Shown here: positions 1 through 9,430 of the stretch, in pieces
Layout: each line of letters opens with the position of its first letter
Numbering within the stretch: the first letter of the stretch is position 1
From: Escherichia coli
GTDB taxonomy: Bacteria > Pseudomonadota > Gammaproteobacteria > Enterobacterales > Enterobacteriaceae
Length of the DNA: 64,000 bases
Assembly (NCBI RefSeq): GCF_003019035.1
Contig: NZ_CP027447.1
Reading direction: 5' to 3' (one strand)
Program-made: the position numbers and the translations under genes
The notes under the pieces: model-generated
Database searches by the model: none
Told to the model about the DNA's origin: nothing
The model's input: the letters and a program-made list of their open reading frames with translations, nothing else

Positions 1-302
1 CGAAAATAAGCTGAACTGTGGCTGCGCATTCTGGCCACCAGCAAAGGTGGCATTGCCTTTTCGATCGCTGGTAACAACGCCTGAATTTTTTCAACTGCAT
101 CAGGGGTGTCTTTCTCTACCCAGCGGAAAATTTTCTGGGTATTGCGAGCCAGGGCTTCCGGATGGCTGTCGTCATACAGTTCAGGAAACGTCATACCCAA
201 CTCAAAATAAGCCTGGGTTATTCCAGTTGCTGGAACTTTTTCGCCATCAGGACGCGCCCAGGCATTCATCGCCATGCGGATGTGTTCATGCTTGATTTTC
301 AT
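1..302 (-). CDS. YdaT-like prophage protein, N-terminal ~100 codons (gene runs off window)
   Basis: Open minus-strand frame from ATG at 300..302 (MKIKHEHIRMAMNAW...), 17-bp overlap with upstream ydaS-like gene; not in ORF track because no stop in window. Confidence 0.4.
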   Translation of the reverse strand, partial: MKIKHEHIRMAMNAWARPDGEKVPATGITQAYFELGMTFPELYDDSHPEALARNTQKIFRWVEKDTPDAVEKIQALLPAIEKAMPPLLVARMRSHSSAYF

Positions 303-567
303 GAATCAAGCTCCTAGTAAGTGGTTGTGTTAACGTTTTGGTATCTTCCAGCTCGGGCCAAATATTCATCCAATCAAAAGGCCTTAGTTGCTGACGTGTA
401 ACTTCACCATTACTGGCTCGCTCAATAAGGACACATAACGATGCCCCTAACATTTGACCTTTACTCAATGCCTTTCTTAGATAACCGATGCTAGTACCAC
501 ACTCACATGCAAACATACGCTGTTCATCTGACGAAAGAGAATTGAGAAATATTCTTAATTCTTCCAT
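286..567 (-). CDS. YdaS/Cro-like HTH prophage regulator
   Basis: 93-aa ORF divergent from repressor-like gene; small HTH protein ending ...LRPFDW... Confidence 0.5.
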   Translation of the reverse strand: MEELRIFLNSLSSDEQRMFACECGTSIGYLRKALSKGQMLGASLCVLIERASNGEVTRQQLRPFDWMNIWPELEDTKTLTQPLTRSLIHENQA

Positions 568-666
568 AGCTACTCCTTAGTAAACACAGCAAGAATACCT
601 ACAGGTAAACAAAAGTCAATACCCTTGGGTTGTTTACCTTGCGGTAATCGCATCTATTATTTACCT
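568..666. promoter_or_regulatory. Divergent promoter/operator region between repressor-like and ydaS-like genes
   Basis: 10-bp inverted repeat aggtaaacaa / ttgtttacct with 17-bp spacer between divergent starts. Confidence 0.35.
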
Positions 667-1086
667 ATGGACAAATATGAATTTAGACGACAACAACTCA
701 TCAAAATTCGTGATGAGAAATGCGATGGTAAAGCGGTTAACGTGGCCAGAAAGATCGGTCGCGAGCCTTCTTATGTATCAAGAATGTTGTACCCAGAGGG
801 GAAAAAAGGAAAAAAACGGATCGCTGATGATATGGTGGAGATTATAGAAGAGTCCTTTGGGTTACCCCGGGGATGGATGGATGGTATCGTTTCATCATCA
901 ACGAACACAGCCTCCAATTATGAAACAAGGGTTCTAACGCCACGACAACGTATTTTTTTAGATCTCTTAGACGAACTGCCAGAAAGTGAAGCGGATAACT
1001 TATTAAAAACTCTTGAAGAGAAAAAACAGTATTACAATATGATCTACGAAGAAATCCGTAAAAAGAAAGCACAAAACGCATCATAA
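667..1086 (+). CDS. CI/RacR-like prophage repressor (HTH)
   Basis: ORF from internal ATG (MDKYEFRR...); HTH-like segment AVNVARKIGREPSYVSRML; divergent from cro-like gene. Confidence 0.5.
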   Translation: MDKYEFRRQQLIKIRDEKCDGKAVNVARKIGREPSYVSRMLYPEGKKGKKRIADDMVEIIEESFGLPRGWMDGIVSSSTNTASNYETRVLTPRQRIFLDLLDELPESEADNLLKTLEEKKQYYNMIYEEIRKKKAQNAS

Positions 1087-1130
1087 CTCACCAAACAACC
1101 AGTCACCAGTTAAGATACTTCAAAAAAATT

Positions 1131-1165
1131 ACCCACGGGTATTTACTTTTTAAATACCCGTGGGT
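1131..1165. terminator. Hairpin (12-bp perfect stem) downstream of repressor-like gene, A-run 5' side
   Basis: acccacgggtat / atacccgtgggt arms with 11-nt loop. Confidence 0.4.
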
Positions 1166-1349
1166 ATCCTTCCTTTCATACCAACCCACCCCGTCCCACA
1201 GAACGCAGGGCAATACTTCGAGTTACCAGGCAGTGGTCAGGGGGTAAGTAGCCAGCCCGAGGCGTAAGAACATGACGGCAGGGTTCAACTTTAACTATGC
1301 AGCAGGTTTTTGTTCCGCTACCCCGGCGTTAAGGGGAAATGAGGTCAAC

Positions 1350-1505
1350 ATGGATACTATCGATCTTGGCAACAACGAATCTCTGGTGTACGGCGTGTTT
1401 CCCAACCAGGACGGCACATTCACCGCGATGACGTATACCAAAAGCAAAACGTTTAAAACCGAAAATGGTGCCCGTCGCTGGCTGGAAAGAAACTCAGGTG
1501 AGTGA
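1350..1505 (+). CDS. Small prophage protein (51 aa), ydaF-like
   Basis: Internal ATG of track ORF 1272..1505; MDTIDLGNNESLVYGV...; position in early-left region. Confidence 0.3.
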   Translation: MDTIDLGNNESLVYGVFPNQDGTFTAMTYTKSKTFKTENGARRWLERNSGE

Positions 1506-1506
1506 T

Positions 1507-1635
1507 ATGGATTTCGACACAATCATGGAAAAGGCTTACGAAGAATACTTCGAAGGCCTTGCCGAAGGCGAAGAAGCTCTCAGCTTCAGTGAGTTTAAAC
1601 AGGCGCTTTCCAGCTCGGCAAAATCTAACGGCTGA
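1507..1635 (+). CDS. Small prophage ORF (42 aa), acidic
   Basis: ATG 2 nt after preceding stop; MDFDTIMEKAYEEYFEGLAEGEE...; below ORF-track length cutoff. Confidence 0.3.
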   Translation: MDFDTIMEKAYEEYFEGLAEGEEALSFSEFKQALSSSAKSNG

Positions 1636-1664
1636 TAAGCGAAGCAGCACCGCGAGGAATCAGT

Positions 1665-1883
1665 ATGCAGAAACGAGAACCCGTCATCATCGCGCCAGAC
1701 TATACCGATGATGAACTTTATGAGTGGATGCGCCAGAAAATTAATGCAGCGCAGGATCTGAAATGGGCCAATGAAGCCAGGGCTAAGCAGGCTGAAAATC
1801 TGTCCGCTCTGGAGCAGGATATCACCAGGCTGGAAAAAGCAGCGGCATTAAGCATTGCCAGAATGATTACATACCCGCGTTAA
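1665..1883 (+). CDS. Hypothetical prophage protein (72 aa)
   Basis: ORF with AGGAA-type RBS upstream. Confidence 0.35.
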   Translation: MQKREPVIIAPDYTDDELYEWMRQKINAAQDLKWANEARAKQAENLSALEQDITRLEKAAALSIARMITYPR

Positions 1884-2450
1884 TAGCTAACCAACGAAGC
1901 TAAGGTTGGTAATTAAGGAGTTCTCCACGGGTGAGGTGGAGTGCGTGCGCCGGACACGGGTGAGCATCCGGCACTGACAGTTTACTGAAAGGATATTTCC
2001 ATGAAAAGTCAGACCATAACGCGAAAGCGCACGGCGAGGTAGCTGGTTCATAGATAGCCTGTCGTTAAATTTTCGTCGACCGTGCGCTTCCGGTTGTGGC
2101 ACTCCGCGAAATGGCGCGGCGGTAAGTATGGCGGGGTTATTCCTTCCCCGTTGAGGACACCGGGTTGTCAGGTTGACCATACTCTTAAGTGACACCCCCG
2201 CTGCAACGCCCTCTGTTATCAATTTTCTGGTGACGTTTGGCGGTATCAGTTTTACTCCGTGACTGCTCTGCCGCCCTTTTTAAAGTGAATTTTGTGATGC
2301 GGTGAATGCGGCTAAGCGCACGCGGAACAGTTAAAACCAAAAACAGTGTTATGGGTGGATTCTCTGTATCCGGCGTTAATTGTTAACTGGTTAACGTCAC
2401 CTGGAGGCACAAGGCACCGCATCACAAAACTCATTGTTGAGGGCGCGATA

Positions 2451-2639
2451 ATGAAAACGTTATTACCAAACGTTAATACGTCTGAAGGTTGTTTTGAAAT
2501 TGGTGTCAGAATCAGTAACCCTGTATTTACTGAAGATGCCATTAACAAGAGAAAACACGAACGGGAGCTATTAAATAAAATATGCATTCTTTCAATGCTG
2601 GCCCGTTTACGTCCGACTCAAAAAGGATACTGGCAATGA
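2451..2639 (+). CDS. Hypothetical prophage protein (62 aa)
   Basis: ATG with GAGGG RBS; stop overlaps next start (ATGA). Confidence 0.3.
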   Translation: MKTLLPNVNTSEGCFEIGVRISNPVFTEDAINKRKHERELLNKICILSMLARLRPTQKGYWQ

Positions 2640-2827
2640 ATACCACATTTGAACTTGTTCTGACAGTTTTTCTTGTTTCCGGTGAACCGATTGACATGGT
2701 TACTGGCGTATACGGCTCAATGAAAGAATGCATGGCTGCCGCAGCGGAACAGAAAATTCCCGGTAACTGTTACCAGGTCGATAAAGTTATTCACCAGGAT
2801 AATAACGAAATCCCGGCAGGATTTTAA
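2636..2827 (+). CDS. Hypothetical small hydrophobic prophage protein (63 aa)
   Basis: ATG with AAAGGA RBS; translationally coupled to upstream ORF. Confidence 0.3.
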   Translation: MNTTFELVLTVFLVSGEPIDMVTGVYGSMKECMAAAAEQKIPGNCYQVDKVIHQDNNEIPAGF

Positions 2828-2920
2828 AACAGCACCGTAATAAATATCCAGTTTCATTCTTATATGCCAGCAATGGCAGGGATTTGTTCATCCTTAAATC
2901 TGTCATGAGGTTAAAACAAA

Positions 2921-5392
2921 ATGAGTAAAGTCTTTATTTGCGCCGCTATTCCTGACGAACTGGCAACAAGGGAAGAAGGCGCTGTGGCTGTAGCCACAGC
3001 CATTGAAGCTGGCGACGAACGCCGCGCCCGTGCCAAATTTACCTGGCAATTCCTGGAGCAATATCCGGCTGCTCAGGACTGCGCTTATAAATTTCTTGTC
3101 TGCGAGGATAAACCCGGTATACCCCGCCCTGCCCTCGATTCCTGGGATGCTGAATATATGCAGGAAAACCGCTGGGATGAGGATTCTGCTTCTTTTGTTC
3201 CGGTTGAGAATGAATCCGATCCGATGAACGTCACTTTTGACAAGCTGGCCCCTGAAGTACAGAACGCTGTCATGGTTAAGTTCGACACATGTGAAAACAT
3301 CACCGTTGATATGGTTATTAGCGCACAGGAATTGTTGCAGGAAGACATGGCAACATTCGACGGACATATCGTTGAAGCGTTGATGAAAATGCCAGATGTT
3401 AACGCCATGTATCCGGAGCTTAAGCTGCATGCCATCGGGTGGGTTAAGCATAAATGTAAGCCTGGTGCCAAATGGCCCGAAATTCAGGCAGAGATGAGCA
3501 TCTGGAAAAAACGTCGCGAAGGTGAACGCAAGGAAACCGGAAAATACACGTCTGTTGTTGATCTCGCCCGCGCCAGAGCCAATCAACAGCACACTGAAAA
3601 CTCAGCAGAAAAAATCCCCCCTGTCACTGCAGTCATTCGTCGCGAATACAAGCAGACATGGAAAACACTGGATGATGAACTGGCCTACGCTCTCTGGCCT
3701 GGTGATGTGGATGCCGGAAACATTGACGGCAGCATCCATCGCTGGGCAAAAAATGAAGTTATCGACAACGACCGCGAAGACTGGAAGCGTATCTCGGCAT
3801 CAATGCGCAAACAGCCTGATGCCCTTCGCTACGACCGCCAGACTATTTTTGGCCTTGTTCGTGAACGTCCGATCGACATTCACAAAGACCCTGTGGCACT
3901 GAACAAATACATTACTGAATACCTGACTACAAAGGGCGTGTTTGAAGATGAAGGAAGAAATCAGAGCGCAACTGATACTCTCCCGTCGCCAGTACCAGAA
4001 ACTGATGCAGTGGAAACGGCAATTCTGGACAACGAAAAAACCGAATGCAAAGTGGAAGTCGAACCATCTGTAGAGCGTGAGGGGCCGTTCTACTTACTCT
4101 TCACCGACAAGGATGGCGAAAAATACGGTCGCGCAAACAAACTTTCTGGTCTGGATAAGGCACTGGCTGCCGGGGCTACTGAAATCACGAAAGAAGAATA
4201 TTTCGCCCGCAAAAACGGTACATACTCAGGTTCACAACAAAATACTGGTGCATCTGACACGACCGCACAACCAGGGCCGGTAAAAGTTACCGCTGACGAA
4301 GTAAACAAAATTATGCAGGCAGCCAATATCAGCCAGCCTGACGCCGATGAACTGCTTGCAGTATCACGTGGTGAATTTGTTGCAGGGATTAGCGATCCGA
4401 ATGATCCGAAATGGGTGAAGGGGATTGAAACCCGCGATTCTGTGAACCAGAACCAGCAAGAAACGGAACAGAGCGACCAGAAAGCGGAACAAAACAGCCC
4501 AAATACACAACAAAACGAGCCAGAAACGAAACAACCTGAACCAGTAGTGCAACAGGAACCGGAAAAGATCTGCACCGCCTGCGGTCAGAGCGGTGGCGGC
4601 AACTGCCCTGATTGTGGTGCGGTGATGGGCGACGCAACATACCAGGAAACATTCGATGAAGAGAATCAGGTTGAAGTTCAGGAAAATGATCCCGAGGAAA
4701 TGGAAGGCGCTGAACATCCACACAAGGAGAACCCTGGCGGCAATCAGCATCACGCCAGCGATAATAAAACTGGCGAGGCGACAGATCCCTTAATTAAGGT
4801 GAATGGTCATCATAAGCTCACATCCACCAGCAGAGCGGGGATTCATCTGATGATCGACCTTGAAACCATGGGAAAAAATCCCGATGCCCCGATTATCTCA
4901 ATAGGCGCAATATTTTTCGATCCACAAACCGGAGATATGGGACCGGAATTTAGCAAGACCATCGATCTGGATACTGCTGGCGGAGTCATTGATCGTGACG
5001 TCATTAAATGGTGGCTGAAGCAATCACGTGAGGCGCAGTCTGCCATTATGACCGATGAAATCCCGTTAGATGATGCACTACTGCAATTGCGGGAATTTAT
5101 CGACGAAAACTCCGGTGAATTTTTTGTTCAGGTCTGGGGTAATGGGGCCAACTTCGACAACGTGATTTTACGCCGTTCATACGAACGACAGGGTATCCCC
5201 TGCCCGTGGCGTTACTACAATGATCGCGATGTGCGCACAATTGTTGAACTGGGAAATTCCATTGGCTTTGATGTCAGAATGGCTATTCCATTCGAAGGTG
5301 TACCCCACAATGCACTTGATGATGCACGTCACCAGGCAAAACAAGTTTCAGCAATCTGGCAAAAACTGATCCCGAGTCAGGCTGATTTTTAA
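2921..5392 (+). CDS. Prophage exonuclease (823 aa) with C-terminal DEDDh-type 3'-5' exonuclease domain
   Basis: C-terminal motifs IDLETMG, WGNGANFD, HNALDDA; central CxxC-x9-CxxC zinc-ribbon-like motif; Q/E-rich linker; position upstream of xis-int. Confidence 0.6.
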   Translation: MSKVFICAAIPDELATREEGAVAVATAIEAGDERRARAKFTWQFLEQYPAAQDCAYKFLVCEDKPGIPRPALDSWDAEYMQENRWDEDSASFVPVENESDPMNVTFDKLAPEVQNAVMVKFDTCENITVDMVISAQELLQEDMATFDGHIVEALMKMPDVNAMYPELKLHAIGWVKHKCKPGAKWPEIQAEMSIWKKRREGERKETGKYTSVVDLARARANQQHTENSAEKIPPVTAVIRREYKQTWKTLDDELAYALWPGDVDAGNIDGSIHRWAKNEVIDNDREDWKRISASMRKQPDALRYDRQTIFGLVRERPIDIHKDPVALNKYITEYLTTKGVFEDEGRNQSATDTLPSPVPETDAVETAILDNEKTECKVEVEPSVEREGPFYLLFTDKDGEKYGRANKLSGLDKALAAGATEITKEEYFARKNGTYSGSQQNTGASDTTAQPGPVKVTADEVNKIMQAANISQPDADELLAVSRGEFVAGISDPNDPKWVKGIETRDSVNQNQQETEQSDQKAEQNSPNTQQNEPETKQPEPVVQQEPEKICTACGQSGGGNCPDCGAVMGDATYQETFDEENQVEVQENDPEEMEGAEHPHKENPGGNQHHASDNKTGEATDPLIKVNGHHKLTSTSRAGIHLMIDLETMGKNPDAPIISIGAIFFDPQTGDMGPEFSKTIDLDTAGGVIDRDVIKWWLKQSREAQSAIMTDEIPLDDALLQLREFIDENSGEFFVQVWGNGANFDNVILRRSYERQGIPCPWRYYNDRDVRTIVELGNSIGFDVRMAIPFEGVPHNALDDARHQAKQVSAIWQKLIPSQADF

Positions 5393-5450
5393 TGTTCAAC
5401 CCTAATTGCCGCTAACCGTATATAGTTAGCGGCGGTTATGAGATATAGCT

Positions 5451-5654
5451 ATGAGCAGCTTATTTTTAACCGAAGATGAATTGCTAATATTAACGGGCTG
5501 CAAATATGCAAGCCACCAGCGAAAATGGTTAACGGAAAACGGGCTTCCGTTCTATACCAATCGTAGTGGCAAACCGATTGTCAGCCGGGATCTATTTACC
5601 TGCAATAAAACTTTACCACCACGCGAGGTAGAGCCGAATTTTGGTGCGATCTGA
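5451..5654 (+). CDS. Excisionase-like protein (67 aa)
   Basis: Small ORF immediately upstream of and overlapping int (ATGA). Confidence 0.4.
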   Translation: MSSLFLTEDELLILTGCKYASHQRKWLTENGLPFYTNRSGKPIVSRDLFTCNKTLPPREVEPNFGAI

Positions 5655-6679
5655 TGGGAAGACGAAGGAAAAATCCTGAACACGAAAAATTACCTCCAAA
5701 TGTATACCCAAATAAATATAGTTATGTATGGAAACCAACATCCAGAGAATCTGTAACACTAACCGCCATCAAGGATGGTTTAGCTGCTTTATGGAAAAAG
5801 TATGAGGAAACTGTAAATAATCGCGATCGTGCAATGACATTCGGTCGCTTGTGGGAAAAATTCCTCGCCAGCGCCTATTACAGTGACCTCAGTCCAAGAA
5901 CACAAAAAGATTATCTGCAACATCAAAAAAAGTTGCTTGCCGTATTCGGTAAGGTGCCGGCAGATTCCATAAAACCAGAACACATCCGTCGATACATGGA
6001 CAAGAGAGGGGAACAGAGTAAAACGCAAGCCAACCATGAAAAAAGCAGTATGTCCCGCGTTTACAGTTGGGGGTATGAGCGAGGGTACGTGAAGGCTAAC
6101 CCATGTGCAGGTGTAAGTAAATTCAAGGCCAAAAACCGCGAACGATATGTAACCGACAAAGAATACCAGGCAGTATTAAGCGTTGCACCTCTTCCTGTTT
6201 TTATCGCAATGGAAATTGCCTATCTGTGTGCAGCGAGGGTTTCCGATGTGTTATCGCTGAAATGGGAGCAGATTGGAAACGACGGGATCTTTATCCAGCA
6301 AGGGAAAACAGGAAAAAAACAGATAAAAGCATGGAGTCCACGATTACAGGCGGCGATCGAAAAAGCAAAACAGTTACCAACATCCGCCTATGTAATCAGC
6401 AATCAATACGGCAACCGATATATGTACAAAGGCTTTAACGAAATGTGGGTAGAAGCAAGAAATCGCGCAGGCAAAATTTCAGGTATTTTAACCGACTTCA
6501 CCTTTCATGATCTGAAGGCGAAAGGAATTTCAGACTATGAAGGAAGCAGTCGGGATAAGCAACTTTTCTCTGGTCACAAAACCGAGGGGCAAGTGCTAAT
6601 CTATGACAGGAAGGTTAAAGTTTCACCGACACTTGATGTCCCGTTACCTGAAAATATTCCAAGAAAATATTCCAAGTAA
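5654..6679 (+). CDS. int: Phage integrase (tyrosine recombinase)
   Basis: 341-aa ORF ending 53 bp from the tRNA-Ser 3' end; typical lambda-family integrase architecture. Confidence 0.85.
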   Translation: MGRRRKNPEHEKLPPNVYPNKYSYVWKPTSRESVTLTAIKDGLAALWKKYEETVNNRDRAMTFGRLWEKFLASAYYSDLSPRTQKDYLQHQKKLLAVFGKVPADSIKPEHIRRYMDKRGEQSKTQANHEKSSMSRVYSWGYERGYVKANPCAGVSKFKAKNRERYVTDKEYQAVLSVAPLPVFIAMEIAYLCAARVSDVLSLKWEQIGNDGIFIQQGKTGKKQIKAWSPRLQAAIEKAKQLPTSAYVISNQYGNRYMYKGFNEMWVEARNRAGKISGILTDFTFHDLKAKGISDYEGSSRDKQLFSGHKTEGQVLIYDRKVKVSPTLDVPLPENIPRKYSK

Positions 6680-6731
6680 TTCCAAGTGTGATTTTTGTCA
6701 CTGACTTAATGATGTATAAGTGATTGAATTT

Positions 6732-6821
6732 TGGCGGAGAGAGGGGGATTTGAACCCCCGGTGGAGTTGCCCCCACTCCGGTTTTCGAGACCGGTCCGTT
6801 CAGCCGCTCCGGCATCTCTCC
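6732..6821 (-). tRNA. serU: tRNA-Ser (anticodon CGA)
   Basis: 90-nt tRNA with long variable arm; reverse complement reads GGAGAGATGCCGGAGCGG...GGTCTCGAAAACC...CTCTCCGCCA. Confidence 0.9.
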
Positions 6822-6914
6822 GTTCAGATGGTTGCCATGATGCCAGGAAATTTGGCATTTTAACAGTCCCTGTCCGTGCAATTTTGTTCAAGTGACGAGT
6901 TTGCGAGCAAAACG

Positions 6915-7712
6915 ATGATTAAGTGGCCCTGGAAAGTACAAGAATCAGCACATCAAACTGCCCTTCCCTGGCAGGAAGCACTATCGATCCCCCTTTTAAC
7001 GTGTCTGACGGAACAGGAACAAAGCAAATTAGTCACTCTTGCCGAACGTTTTTTACAGCAAAAGCGGCTTGTTCCTTTACAGGGCTTTGAACTGGATTCA
7101 TTAAGAAGCTGCCGGATAGCACTTCTATTTTGCCTACCCGTTCTGGAGTTAGGACTGGAATGGCTGGATGGTTTTCATGAAGTCTTAATTTATCCTGCGC
7201 CATTTGTGGTCGATGACGAATGGGAAGACGATATCGGTCTGGTGCATAACCAACGTATTGTTCAGTCAGGTCAGAGCTGGCAGCAAGGGCCTATCGTTTT
7301 GAACTGGTTGGATATACAAGATTCTTTTGATGCTTCTGGTTTTAACCTGATTATTCATGAAGTCGCTCATAAGCTGGACACCCGTAACGGCGATCGCGCC
7401 AGCGGAGTTCCCTTTATTCCGTTGCGTGAGGTTGCTGGCTGGGAACACGATCTTCATGCTGCAATGAACAACATTCAGGAAGAAATCGAATTGGTTGGCG
7501 AGAATGCGGCGAGCATTGATGCTTATGCTGCCAGTGATCCTGCTGAATGTTTTGCCGTACTTTCTGAATATTTCTTTAGCGCCCCAGAACTTTTTGCTCC
7601 TCGTTTCCCTTCATTGTGGCAACGTTTCTGCCAATTTTATCAACAAGATCCTTTGCAGAGACTGCATCACGCTAATGATACAGACTCGTTTTCGGCGACG
7701 AATGTTCATTAA
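6915..7712 (+). CDS. mtfA: Mlc titration factor A-like protein
   Basis: 265-aa product from MIKWPWK start; HEVAHKLD metalloprotease-like motif; position between serU and asnT. Confidence 0.8.
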
Positions 7713-7812: not shown

Positions 7813-7888
7813 TCCTCTGTAGTTCAGTCGGTAGAACGGCGGACTGTTAATCCGTATGTCACTGGTTCGAGTCCAGTCAGAGGAGCCA
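7813..7888 (+). tRNA. asnT: tRNA-Asn (anticodon GUU)
   Basis: 76-nt tRNA TCCTCTGTAGTTCAGTCGGTAGAACGGCGGACTGTTAATCCG...GGAGCCA; identical copies at 33015, 34839, 37247. Confidence 0.95.
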
Positions 7889-8049
7889 AATTCAAGTTTT
7901 CATGCTTATCCATACGTCTCTATATGTTTACGATTCAGTAAGTTAGCGTGAAAATCCTTCCCGATGCGTATCTGGTTTTCTCTCCGCATCGGGATAATTT
8001 GGTGGTCAGATCTGGGGTCAGTTTGGTTCGATTCTGGAGTGACCCCCAA

Positions 8050-9312
8050 ATGTCTTTAAACGATTCTAAAATCCGCACGTTAAAACCTTCTTCCCGTCCG
8101 GTAAAACTCTCCGACTCTCACGGTCTGTATCTGCTCGTCAATCCGGGCGGTTCACGCATCTGGTATCTCAAATATCGTTTCAACGGAAAAGAATCCAGAG
8201 TCAGTCTTGGCGCATACCCGCTGGTCTCACTGGCAGAAGCCAGGCAGCAGCGCGACGGTATCCGTAAGCTGCTGGCGCAGAATATCAACCCGGCGCAACA
8301 GCGCATGGCAGAGAAAACTGCCTGCTCTCCTGAAAAGTGCTTTAAGGCGGTGGCGCTGGCCTGGCACAAAACCAACAAAAAATGGTCGGCTGATTATGCT
8401 GCACGTATTCTCGCCAGCATGGAAAATCATATCTTCCCGGCGATTGGTCATCTGCCCGTTGCCACTCTTAAAACGCAGGATTTCACTGCTTTGTTGCGGG
8501 TTATCGAGGATAAAGGCTTTCTGGAAGTCGCGTCCCGAACACGGCAGCAACTCAGCAACATCATGCGCTATGCCGTTCAGCAGGGACTTACCGACAGTAA
8601 CCCAGCGCAGCATCTGGATGGCGTTGTCGCCTCCCCCGTAAAAAATCACTACCCCGCTTTACCGCTGGAGCGATTGCCTGAACTGCTTGACCGCATTGGC
8701 GACTACCGGCAGGGCCGGGAGTTAACCCGGCTGGCGGTGGTGCTGACGCTGCACCTGTTCATCCGCTCCAGCGAACTGCGTTTCGCCCGCTGGAGCGAGA
8801 TCGATTTCAGGCACAAAATCTGGACCATCCCCGCCACCCGCGAAGCCATCGACAAAGTACGGTTTTCCGATCGTGGCGCCAAAATGCGTAGTCCGCATAT
8901 CGTGCCGCTCTCCCGCCAGGCCATTGCCATTCTGAAACAGATACAGGAACTTTCCGGTCATCTGGATCTGGTGTTTCCCGGTGATCATAACCCGTACAAG
9001 CCAATGAGTGAAAACACCACCAACCGGGCGCTGCGCCTGATGGGGTATGATACGAAAACTGAAATCTGCGGACATGGACTCAGGGCGATGGCCTGTAGCG
9101 CCCTGGTGGAGTCAGATCTCTGGTCACGCGATACGGTGGAGCGGCAAATGAGCCACCAGGAGCGCAACAGCGTGCGTGCGGCATATGTGCATAAGGCGGA
9201 GCATCTGGAGGCCAGAAAAGCCATGATGCAGTGGTGGTCGGATTATCTGGATGTGTGCCGTGAGGGGTATATTGCGCCGTATATTTATGCCCGGCAGCAT
9301 AAGGCGGCCTGA
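8050..9312 (+). CDS. int: P4-type integrase (tyrosine recombinase, ~420 aa)
   Basis: Start MSLNDSKIRTLK...; C-terminal catalytic region with ...GHGLRAM... and terminal tyrosine segment; adjacent to tRNA-Asn. Confidence 0.85.
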   Translation: MSLNDSKIRTLKPSSRPVKLSDSHGLYLLVNPGGSRIWYLKYRFNGKESRVSLGAYPLVSLAEARQQRDGIRKLLAQNINPAQQRMAEKTACSPEKCFKAVALAWHKTNKKWSADYAARILASMENHIFPAIGHLPVATLKTQDFTALLRVIEDKGFLEVASRTRQQLSNIMRYAVQQGLTDSNPAQHLDGVVASPVKNHYPALPLERLPELLDRIGDYRQGRELTRLAVVLTLHLFIRSSELRFARWSEIDFRHKIWTIPATREAIDKVRFSDRGAKMRSPHIVPLSRQAIAILKQIQELSGHLDLVFPGDHNPYKPMSENTTNRALRLMGYDTKTEICGHGLRAMACSALVESDLWSRDTVERQMSHQERNSVRAAYVHKAEHLEARKAMMQWWSDYLDVCREGYIAPYIYARQHKAA

Positions 9313-9343
9313 ATCAGAAATAACGTAAATCATTAAAAATGTA

Positions 9344-9380
9344 AAAGCAGATCCTGATTGACCGGGATCTGCTTTTTTGT
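9344..9380 (+). terminator. Rho-independent terminator of the P4-type int gene
   Basis: Stem aagcagatcc / ggatctgctt followed by TTTTTT. Confidence 0.6.
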
Positions 9381-9430
9381 ATTGAGAGGTATTGCCGTTG
9401 TTTTTTATTATTATCAATCAGAAAGTATCT

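Follow-up and report, generated by a model that had tools for sequence, protein, structure and literature searches.

Introduction

The described systems closest to the gene reported here, which lies at positions 2921 to 5392 of a 64,000-nucleotide stretch of Escherichia coli DNA (contig NZ_CP027447.1 of assembly GCF_003019035.1; the whole stretch is referred to below as the window), are RecE of the K-12 Rac prophage and DexA of phage T4. RecE carries a 5'-3' nuclease of the PD-(D/E)XK type and is encoded next to RecT; RecET and lambda Red belong to the two-component phage recombinases (‘SynExo’), in which an annealase gene is adjacent to the nuclease gene. A 2023 review (PMC11611040) describes the N-terminal region of RecE as being of unknown function, dispensable for basic RecET recombination and a booster of linear-linear recombination. 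T4 DexA (structures 8kel and 8ken) is a 227-aa stand-alone DEDDh exonuclease of a lytic phage that acts on DNA, and a homologue encoded by E. coli, EcD (HREX), has been reported to digest DNA containing 5-hydroxymethylcytosine (5hmC) and to protect against T4 (PMC12153337, 2025). The Pfam family to which such domains are assigned, PF16473, takes its name from Rv2179c, a small stand-alone 3'-5' exoribonuclease of Mycobacterium tuberculosis.

We show here that the gene in the window encodes a three-part mosaic, in which a YdfE-type scaffold is followed by a linker shared with RecE and by a DexA-like DEDDh domain in the place of the RecE nuclease. It is near certain that this 823-aa protein is the intact form of the product of the K-12 Qin pseudogene ydfE, and its predicted mode of action is that of a DexA-type exonuclease attached to the body of RecE. 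On balance, and with moderate confidence, we take it to be a stand-alone exonuclease that processes DNA ends with a polarity opposite to that of RecE and without an annealase of its own.

Results

The gene is an intact and common ydfE

An earlier sequence-only reading of the window had described an 823-aa prophage exonuclease gene at 2921-5392, and the open reading frame (ORF), which has an ATG start and lies on the plus strand, is present exactly as claimed. The features within it are as follows.

2921..5392, + strand: intact ydfE, 823 aa, chimera of RecE-type scaffold and DEDDh exonuclease (ATG-start ORF; PHROG 2082; identity to K-12 YdfE)
2921..3586, + strand: domain D1 (residues 1-222, YdfE_N), alpha/beta subdomain and then a bundle of helices
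3653..3955, + strand: domain D2 (residues 245-345), helical, the YdfE_C / RecE 278-340 region (AlphaFold2 pLDDT 94-98; RecE alignment)
4073..4234, + strand: domain D3 (residues 385-438), small, two beta-hairpins and helices (AlphaFold2 pLDDT 94-96)
4345..4794, + strand: linker common with recE (residues 476-625), comprising Q/E-rich low-complexity sequence, zinc ribbon and acidic tail (77% nucleotide identity to K-12 recE)
4571..4615, + strand: four-Cys zinc-ribbon motif CTACGQSGGGNCPDC (C551, C554, C562, C565; regular expression on the translation)
4844..5359, + strand: DexA-like DEDDh 3'-5' exonuclease domain (residues 642-813), catalytic residues D646, E648, D746, H796 and D801 (PF16473)

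In K-12 Qin, ydfD is followed by the pseudogene ydfE, which is interrupted by IS2E, and the protein studied here is 94% identical to K-12 YdfE over residues 1-256. Together with this identity, an end-to-end match to PHROG 2082 (‘exonuclease’; 1-823 of 823, 1816 bits) places it in the YdfE family, and precomputed matches to the newer Pfam families YdfE_N (PF27430) and YdfE_C (PF27432) are found on homologues 90-93% identical to it. The names given by PGAP to near-identical proteins are ‘exonuclease’, ‘3'-5' exoribonuclease’ and ‘3'-5' exoribonuclease domain-containing protein’. The unusualness implied by the sequence-only reading did not survive this comparison: the gene is an ordinary one, among the commonest of E. 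coli prophage genes and already catalogued in databases. Of 5426 complete E. coli genomes, 3532 (about 65%) have a match that covers at least 80% of its length, with a median of two matching places per genome and a maximum of ten when partial matches are counted, and many of the copies have 96% nucleotide identity to the gene. It is also found in sequenced phages, among them the viable phage mEp460, Tritos, HannyBb, Evi and the PPompW phages.

When compared with two homologous copies, the gene gave an overall ratio of non-synonymous to synonymous substitution rates (dN/dS) of 0.22-0.26, with values of 0.10-0.18 in D1 and in the DEDDh domain and mostly higher values, 0.24-1.04 from small counts, in the disordered linkers. 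The low dN/dS indicates that the protein is maintained by purifying selection. Searches of the literature on ydfE, on the dicBF operon with an exonuclease, on RecE with DEDDh, on Rv2179c and on PF16473 found no functional study of the YdfE protein.

The catalytic domain is of the DexA type

The C-terminal domain matches PF16473 (‘Rv2179c-like 3'-5' exoribonuclease domain’) over profile positions 2-177 of 177 with an E-value of 2.2e-65 and 220.1 bits, the gathering cutoff being 27, a match well outside the range of chance, and it carries the Asp-Glu-Asp-Asp and His residues in the three Exo motifs. The motifs named in the sequence-only reading are real, with DLETMG at residue 646, WGNGANFD at 739 and HNALDDA at 796. 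Residues D646, E648, D746, H796 and D801 align with D7, E9, D119, H186 and D191 of T4 DexA, and all five are invariant in six phage homologues. In searches of the Protein Data Bank (PDB), the nearest solved structure was T4 DexA 8kel, found with an E-value of 1.2e-5 from the single sequence and 2.7e-17 from a six-sequence profile; RNase T, the PolC exonuclease and DnaQ appeared at about 1e-2 in the same profile search, and Rv2179c was not detected by sequence or profile even at E<=1. The polarity of the protein is predicted to be 3'-5' from the DEDDh fold, and its substrate is probably DNA, as the closest solved relative is a DNA enzyme.

The core of the domain is 34% identical to DexA, from which it differs in its setting, since it forms the C-terminal part of a temperate-phage scaffold protein of 823 aa rather than a small lytic-phage protein, and in lacking the two loops specific to DexA. 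Of the residues associated with HREX, W152 corresponds to Y766 and D169 falls in a deleted loop, an assignment that is moderately firm since a two-sequence alignment may shift; the tetramer-forming residue D90, which is Ala in EcD, is retained as D718. EcD and the protein described here are alike in being DexA-family DEDDh exonucleases encoded by E. coli, but they are not the same protein: by its cloning primers EcD starts MIDTET and ends ...TIPETYD, its primer sequence does not occur in the window, and the two proteins disagree at the key residues. Rv2179c is likewise a member of the same Pfam family and differs in being a small stand-alone bacterial RNA enzyme. A PADLOC search returned a weak match to a generic CRISPR-associated DEDDh model (E 6e-4) and nothing else.

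The remainder of the protein is a RecE-type scaffold

The region ahead of the catalytic domain was compared with RecE by several routes. BLASTP against K-12 RecE aligned residues 262-625 with RecE 278-591 (E 2e-62), and the NCBIfam RecE equivalog NF007259 matched residues 246-625 through its non-catalytic positions 271-602. Only these of the 877 model positions were matched, and the score of 277.9 bits is far from the curated cutoff of 1269, so that the protein shares the middle region and zinc-ribbon linker of RecE and is not itself a member of the equivalog. The similarity ends just ahead of the RecE nuclease domain, and none was found past RecE residue 591. In agreement with the claim that the C-terminus is DnaQ-like and not RecB-like, no similarity to the RecE nuclease was seen: phmmer with the RecE C-terminal nuclease (592-866 / PF12684 DUF3799) found no match in the representative P0004, which is 93% identical to the protein, whereas the relatives P0246 and P0142 were positive. 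At the other end, PF06630 (Exonuc_VIII), the N-terminus of RecE, has no match in the protein at E<=1, and the first 245 residues are YdfE_N instead.

The identity to RecE is highest over residues about 470-625, which include the zinc ribbon and the acidic tail and are about 80% identical in amino acids to RecE 450-591. The Q/E-rich low-complexity stretch that had been reported for the linker is there, at about residues 508-548; the cysteine spacing is not as reported, since C551-x2-C554-x7-C562-x2-C565 makes the motif CxxC-x7-CxxC and not x9. The ribbon gives a weak match to PF12773 DZR (E 0.13) and is conserved in RecE as CNACGQTGGDNCPDC. Both the zinc ribbon and the Q/E linker, which the sequence-only reading had singled out, are inherited from the RecE lineage and are therefore not distinctive of this protein.

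An AlphaFold2 model of residues 1-470, built on 64 homologues and with a mean predicted local distance difference test score (pLDDT) of 85.5, showed three confidently folded units, the domains D1 to D3, with disordered linkers between them.

The mosaic character of the gene is also seen in DNA. The nucleotide match to K-12 recE is confined to window positions 4345-4794 and stops at 4794, and from 4367 through xis, int, the tRNA-Ser gene and mtfA the window has 95.6% nucleotide identity to locus L006, in which the 5' part of the exonuclease gene is unrelated. Both mosaic junctions therefore lie at the edges of the shared linker. L006 is a second prophage at the same tRNA-Ser/mtfA site, with a RecE-type N-terminus before the same DEDDh domain; its operon is Rac-like (sieB, kilR, ydaE).

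The scaffold carries several different C-termini

A HMMER scan with residues 1-625 over 1.84 billion representative proteins yielded 240 relatives, the long members of which were split by domain queries. In these relatives the scaffold begins with either YdfE_N or the Exonuc_VIII domain of RecE and continues with a common middle and zinc linker. The DEDDh C-terminus is found in this gene and in P0122, P0128, P0140, P0141 and P0255, and in three of these (P0128, P0140 and P0255) it is preceded by PF06630, the RecE N-terminus. A RecE-type PD-(D/E)XK C-terminus is found in P0246, P0142, P0195 and P0130. In at least 14 representatives the C-terminus is a phrog_7838 module, which PHROGs labels ‘exonuclease’; we considered it as another nuclease and rejected this, as its fold is that of a Rad52-like annealase. 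The architecture is retained in divergent homologues, which are 53-59% identical or can be matched only by single domains.

Two relatives, P0125 and P0134, have no catalytic C-terminal domain. In both, the last 45 or so residues form a conserved helical tail (…LTIAA(L/I)xGLCANPA…), and the gene for P0125 (L014 6001-8109) is followed directly by xis/int. In P0204 (703 aa), about 525 N-terminal residues of RecE run in frame, from inside the zinc ribbon, into what we take to be RecT-like sequence (…GHAYLLPFGNKNEKSGKK…), recognized by eye; with that reading of its RecT part, P0204 looks like a natural recE-recT deletion fusion. The scaffold is fused to a nuclease or to an annealase and so travels with either half of a phage recombinase. 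We did not find a description in the literature of a modular scaffold with interchangeable heads that include a Rad52-like annealase.

In the loci examined, recT follows only genes for RecE-type nucleases

The sequence-only reading had placed the gene in the slot of recE-recT in Rac-type prophages, and this is borne out by the K-12 Rac order racC-recE-recT-ralR-rcbA-xisR-intR: in both prophages the gene lies ahead of xis/int, where the early-left operon ends, and recT follows in Rac but not here. It had also claimed that only intergenic sequence, with no annealase gene, separates the exonuclease gene from xis. Between the exonuclease stop codon at 5392 and the xis start at 5451 there are indeed 58 bp that contain no ORF, and all genes of the operon could be identified; in the early-left operon, which lies wholly inside the window, the plus-strand genes from repressor to int are all small known Qin-type genes by Pfam, PHROG and Rfam, and none is an annealase. 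A pattern scan found no terminator-like site between the exonuclease gene and xis.

Eleven loci were compared, eight with the DEDDh head and three with the RecE-type nuclease head. In all eight of the former (the window, E. coli EC416, mEp460, L006, L008, L009, L010 and L011) xis/int or int comes immediately after the gene, and among them there is neither an annealase gene nor a defence-related neighbour. Profile searches did not place the gene in a well-characterized family with a partner encoded elsewhere in the prophage. None of the 60 genes in the complete genome of mEp460, a viable close relative, is annotated as an annealase, and a Pfam scan of eight of its unnamed or FIG-labelled ORFs found no annealase family in the seven that could be judged, a 121-aa ORF being excluded. 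One of the mEp460 ORFs (L016 33822-35171, minus strand), of 449 aa and without a Pfam match, lies between the replication genes and the Q region, where phages typically carry accessory or defence cargo.

Of the three loci with a RecE-type nuclease, K-12 Rac and L013 have recT as the next gene (PF03837, E 2e-36, in L013). In the third, L012, the recT position (8565-9380) after the RecE-nuclease homologue P0246 is taken by a 271-aa protein of phrog_3657 (function unknown), which has no Pfam match and no BLASTP similarity to RecT and was not counted as an annealase, although it may represent an unrecognized annealase family. The gene next to that of the Rad52-like fusion P0135 encodes a Sipho_Gp157 protein. 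We found no account in the literature of the apparent rule that annealase genes accompany the 5'-3' head alone.

Stand-alone DEDDh genes occupy the same position in other phages. In Salmonella phage ST64B (sb30) and E. coli phage PhiR55_1 (annotated ‘ExoVIII’), genes of about 190 aa, whose products are 57-61% identical to residues 642-820, lie directly upstream of xis or int; they lack the scaffold and belong to different early-left operons, containing YfdP, YfdQ/DUF2303, an HD 5'-nucleotidase and Ea22. The set of YfdQ/DUF2303, stand-alone DEDDh and HD phosphohydrolase/5'-deoxynucleotidase genes recurs in three unrelated temperate phages, ST64B (L017 2231-6564), PhiR55_1 (L018 3345-6567) and Pseudomonas phage pAN (L020 1778-5298), which suggests a DNA or nucleotide-catabolism module.

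The gene is the last of a dicBF-type early-left operon

The region 286-6821 is the immunity region and complete early-left arm of a lambdoid prophage of the Qin/Rac type, located at tRNA-Ser(CGA) beside mtfA, and the exonuclease gene is the last of its dicBF-type early-left operon. The other features of the region are listed below.

286..567, - strand: Cro/YdaS-like regulator, divergent from the repressor (PF15943 YdaS_toxin E 9e-6; phrog_35 transcriptional repressor E 5e-23)
625..1086, + strand: prophage repressor-like transcriptional regulator (phrog_5736 ‘transcriptional regulator’ E 5e-70, full length; dicA position of K-12 Qin)
1130..1166, no strand assigned: bidirectional terminator-like hairpin with a 16-bp stem in the gap between the repressor gene and ydfA (pattern scan alone)
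1350..1505, + strand: ydfA (DUF1391; PF07151 E 5.5e-28)
1507..1635, + strand: ydfB homologue (phrog_2061 E 5e-37; collinear with K-12 ydfB)
1665..1883, + strand: ydfC homologue (phrog_1744 E 2e-39; collinear with K-12 ydfC)
2225..2276, + strand: DicF small RNA (Rfam RF00039, 76.7 bits against a gathering score of 48, E 7e-16, full model)
2451..2639, + strand: dicB, cell-division inhibitor (PF05358 E 1.2e-35, full profile)
2636..2827, + strand: ydfD (DUF1482; PF07358 E 8.5e-20)
5451..5654, + strand: excisionase xis (DUF4224; PF13986 E 2.8e-16)
5654..6679, + strand: tyrosine integrase (PF00589 E 3e-11, plus SAM-like N-terminal domains)
6732..6821, - strand: tRNA-Ser(CGA), the attachment-site tRNA (ARAGORN; Rfam tRNA)
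6876-7712: mtfA, beyond tRNA-Ser(CGA) (Peptidase_M90 E 5e-60)

The order ydfA-ydfB-ydfC-DicF-dicB-ydfD-exo-xis-int-tRNA-Ser is that of K-12 Qin up to ydfE, and window positions 1312-3687 have 95% nucleotide identity to Qin. As the Cro/YdaS-like gene marks the immunity region, the rest of the prophage lies to the left of the window. The true start of the repressor-like gene is probably the ATG at 667; a Pfam scan of its product gave no match of any kind, helix-turn-helix domains included, and the protein differs from DicA at the same position in K-12 Qin even though the operon beyond it is 95% identical to Qin. The hairpin at the head of the exonuclease operon has a perfect 16-bp stem with T-runs on both strands. 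It resembles a bidirectional terminator, so that expression of ydfE may need read-through or antitermination.

Beyond mtfA (window positions 7813-27007), a tRNA-Asn gene (7813-7888) is followed by a small island. We considered whether it was a yersiniabactin island and rejected this, since its genes encode integrases, an Rhs protein and a YeeJ-like adhesin:

7948-9312: P4-type integrase
10628-11584, - strand: second integrase, Integrase_1 family
11569-11697, - strand: EFASI RNA at the 5' end of the Integrase_1 gene (97 bits)
13643-17422: Rhs-repeat protein
18950-27007: YeeJ-like inverse autotransporter, 2685 aa

Discussion

The molecular identity of the protein is near certain. The assignment of a biological role, that is, recombination or end processing as against plain DNA degradation, is tentative and less likely than not to be right. 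Our current working model, in which we place moderate confidence, is that of an end-processing exonuclease of reversed polarity. Only after inactivation of the prophage repressor would the ydfE gene be transcribed, together with DicF, dicB and ydfD, and its product would then meet linear DNA during lytic growth in a setting with no dedicated annealase. The DEDDh site would act on DNA with a free 3'-OH end, cleaving off nucleotides by two-metal-ion hydrolysis and releasing deoxynucleoside monophosphates, and the scaffold would deliver the catalytic domain to whatever substrate or partner it serves in RecE, the most plausible targets being linear double-stranded DNA ends or recombination intermediates. 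In this way 3' tails could be trimmed or 5' tails exposed, and strand pairing would be left to host functions. The N-terminus of RecE boosts linear-linear recombination (PMC11611040), and a role in the processing of DNA ends is therefore favoured.

Several considerations weigh against this model. An enzyme of 3'-5' polarity removes the 3' tails that RecA and annealases use, so that a pro-recombination role is not an obvious one. The fold search with the scaffold, D1 included, returned no informative match, and the targeting role given to the scaffold is for this reason purely one that we infer. The scaffold-free DEDDh homologues (57-61% identical) of ST64B and PhiR55_1 occupy the same slot in operons with an HD 5'-nucleotidase, a setting that suggests the breakdown of DNA or nucleotides and not recombination. 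Pfam and PGAP both label the domain an exoribonuclease, and no biochemical or genetic data for YdfE were found in the literature.

The main rival explanation is that YdfE is a DNA degrader of the DexA/HREX kind, digesting the DNA of the host or of competing phages, possibly modified DNA, either once the prophage is induced or as a result of leaky expression during lysogeny, and serving nucleotide scavenging or phage exclusion. Such a role fits with T4 DexA as the nearest solved relative, with the digestion of 5hmC DNA and the protection against T4 reported for EcD (PMC12153337), and with the stand-alone homologues of ST64B, PhiR55_1 and Pseudomonas phage pAN, whose operons include a gene for an HD phosphohydrolase or 5'-nucleotidase. 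However, EcD is a different protein, and the DexA residues to which 5hmC recognition has been attributed are not kept (W152 is Y766 and the D169 loop is deleted, with D90 kept as D718); control of the operon by a repressor is atypical of constitutive prophage defence genes, PADLOC offered the generic DEDDh match alone (E 6e-4), and the conserved 620-aa RecE-type scaffold would be left unexplained. We regard this explanation as possible but rather doubtful. Activity as an exoribonuclease that trims RNA 3' ends, for example in DicF maturation or host RNA turnover, appears improbable. It would agree with the naming of PF16473 after Rv2179c, with the name ‘3'-5' exoribonuclease’ given by PGAP to many copies and with the processing of DicF from the same transcript, but the PDB searches led to DexA, an exonuclease of DNA, and did not detect Rv2179c even at E<=1, and the other enzymes found on the scaffold, the RecE-type nuclease and the Rad52-like annealase, belong to DNA recombination. 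Moreover, K-12 produces DicF, and it does so despite its IS2-disrupted ydfE.

A further suggestion, already raised in the sequence-only reading, is that of an anti-defence nuclease, which would destroy an immune molecule of the host such as a linear oligonucleotide signal, retron multicopy single-stranded DNA or guide RNAs. DEDDh enzymes are able to degrade short oligonucleotides, and ydfE is an early gene in a lambdoid region of accessory and anti-host functions; against this, no defence or counter-defence family was matched beyond the generic DEDDh one, and no defence-related gene neighbours the exonuclease in the eight loci, so that we consider this highly improbable. It is scarcely credible that the gene is a non-functional relic of prophage recombination, a broken recE that happens to be still open. 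It is visibly mosaic and the K-12 copy is truncated. Against this stand the low dN/dS of D1 and of the DEDDh domain (0.10-0.18), the complete set of catalytic residues, the occurrence of at least 80% of the gene in 3532 of 5426 E. coli genomes as well as in viable phages, and the architecture that divergent homologues retain.

An extension of the end-processing model can be drawn from the relatives. The scaffold may be a general recombination platform with interchangeable heads (5'-3' nuclease, 3'-5' nuclease or Rad52-like annealase), of which the DEDDh version would carry out recombination or end joining as a single protein and with reversed polarity, exposing 5' tails without a dedicated annealase; alternatively, it would be an anti-recombination device that removes the 3' tails on which RecA loads. 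We consider this platform scheme speculative and, as it stands, unlikely. The in vivo cloning activity of the host that depends on XthA provides a comparison for end joining through 5' tails.

These findings have consequences for how the family is named and used. The annotations ‘exodeoxyribonuclease VIII’ and ‘RecE’ for YdfE are wrong on chemistry and, by the direction predicted from the fold, on polarity, and ‘exoribonuclease’ is probably wrong on substrate. The N-terminal two thirds of RecE, which are used in ‘full-length RecE’ direct cloning, are a conserved and well-folded scaffold. In nature this scaffold is joined to nucleases of 5'-3' or 3'-5' type or to a Rad52-like annealase, which offers a practical way into its function. 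The part most worth testing is the modular scaffold together with the pattern, seen in 11 loci, of an annealase gene only with the 5'-3' head, and the natural chimeras provide a ready set for recombineering trials.

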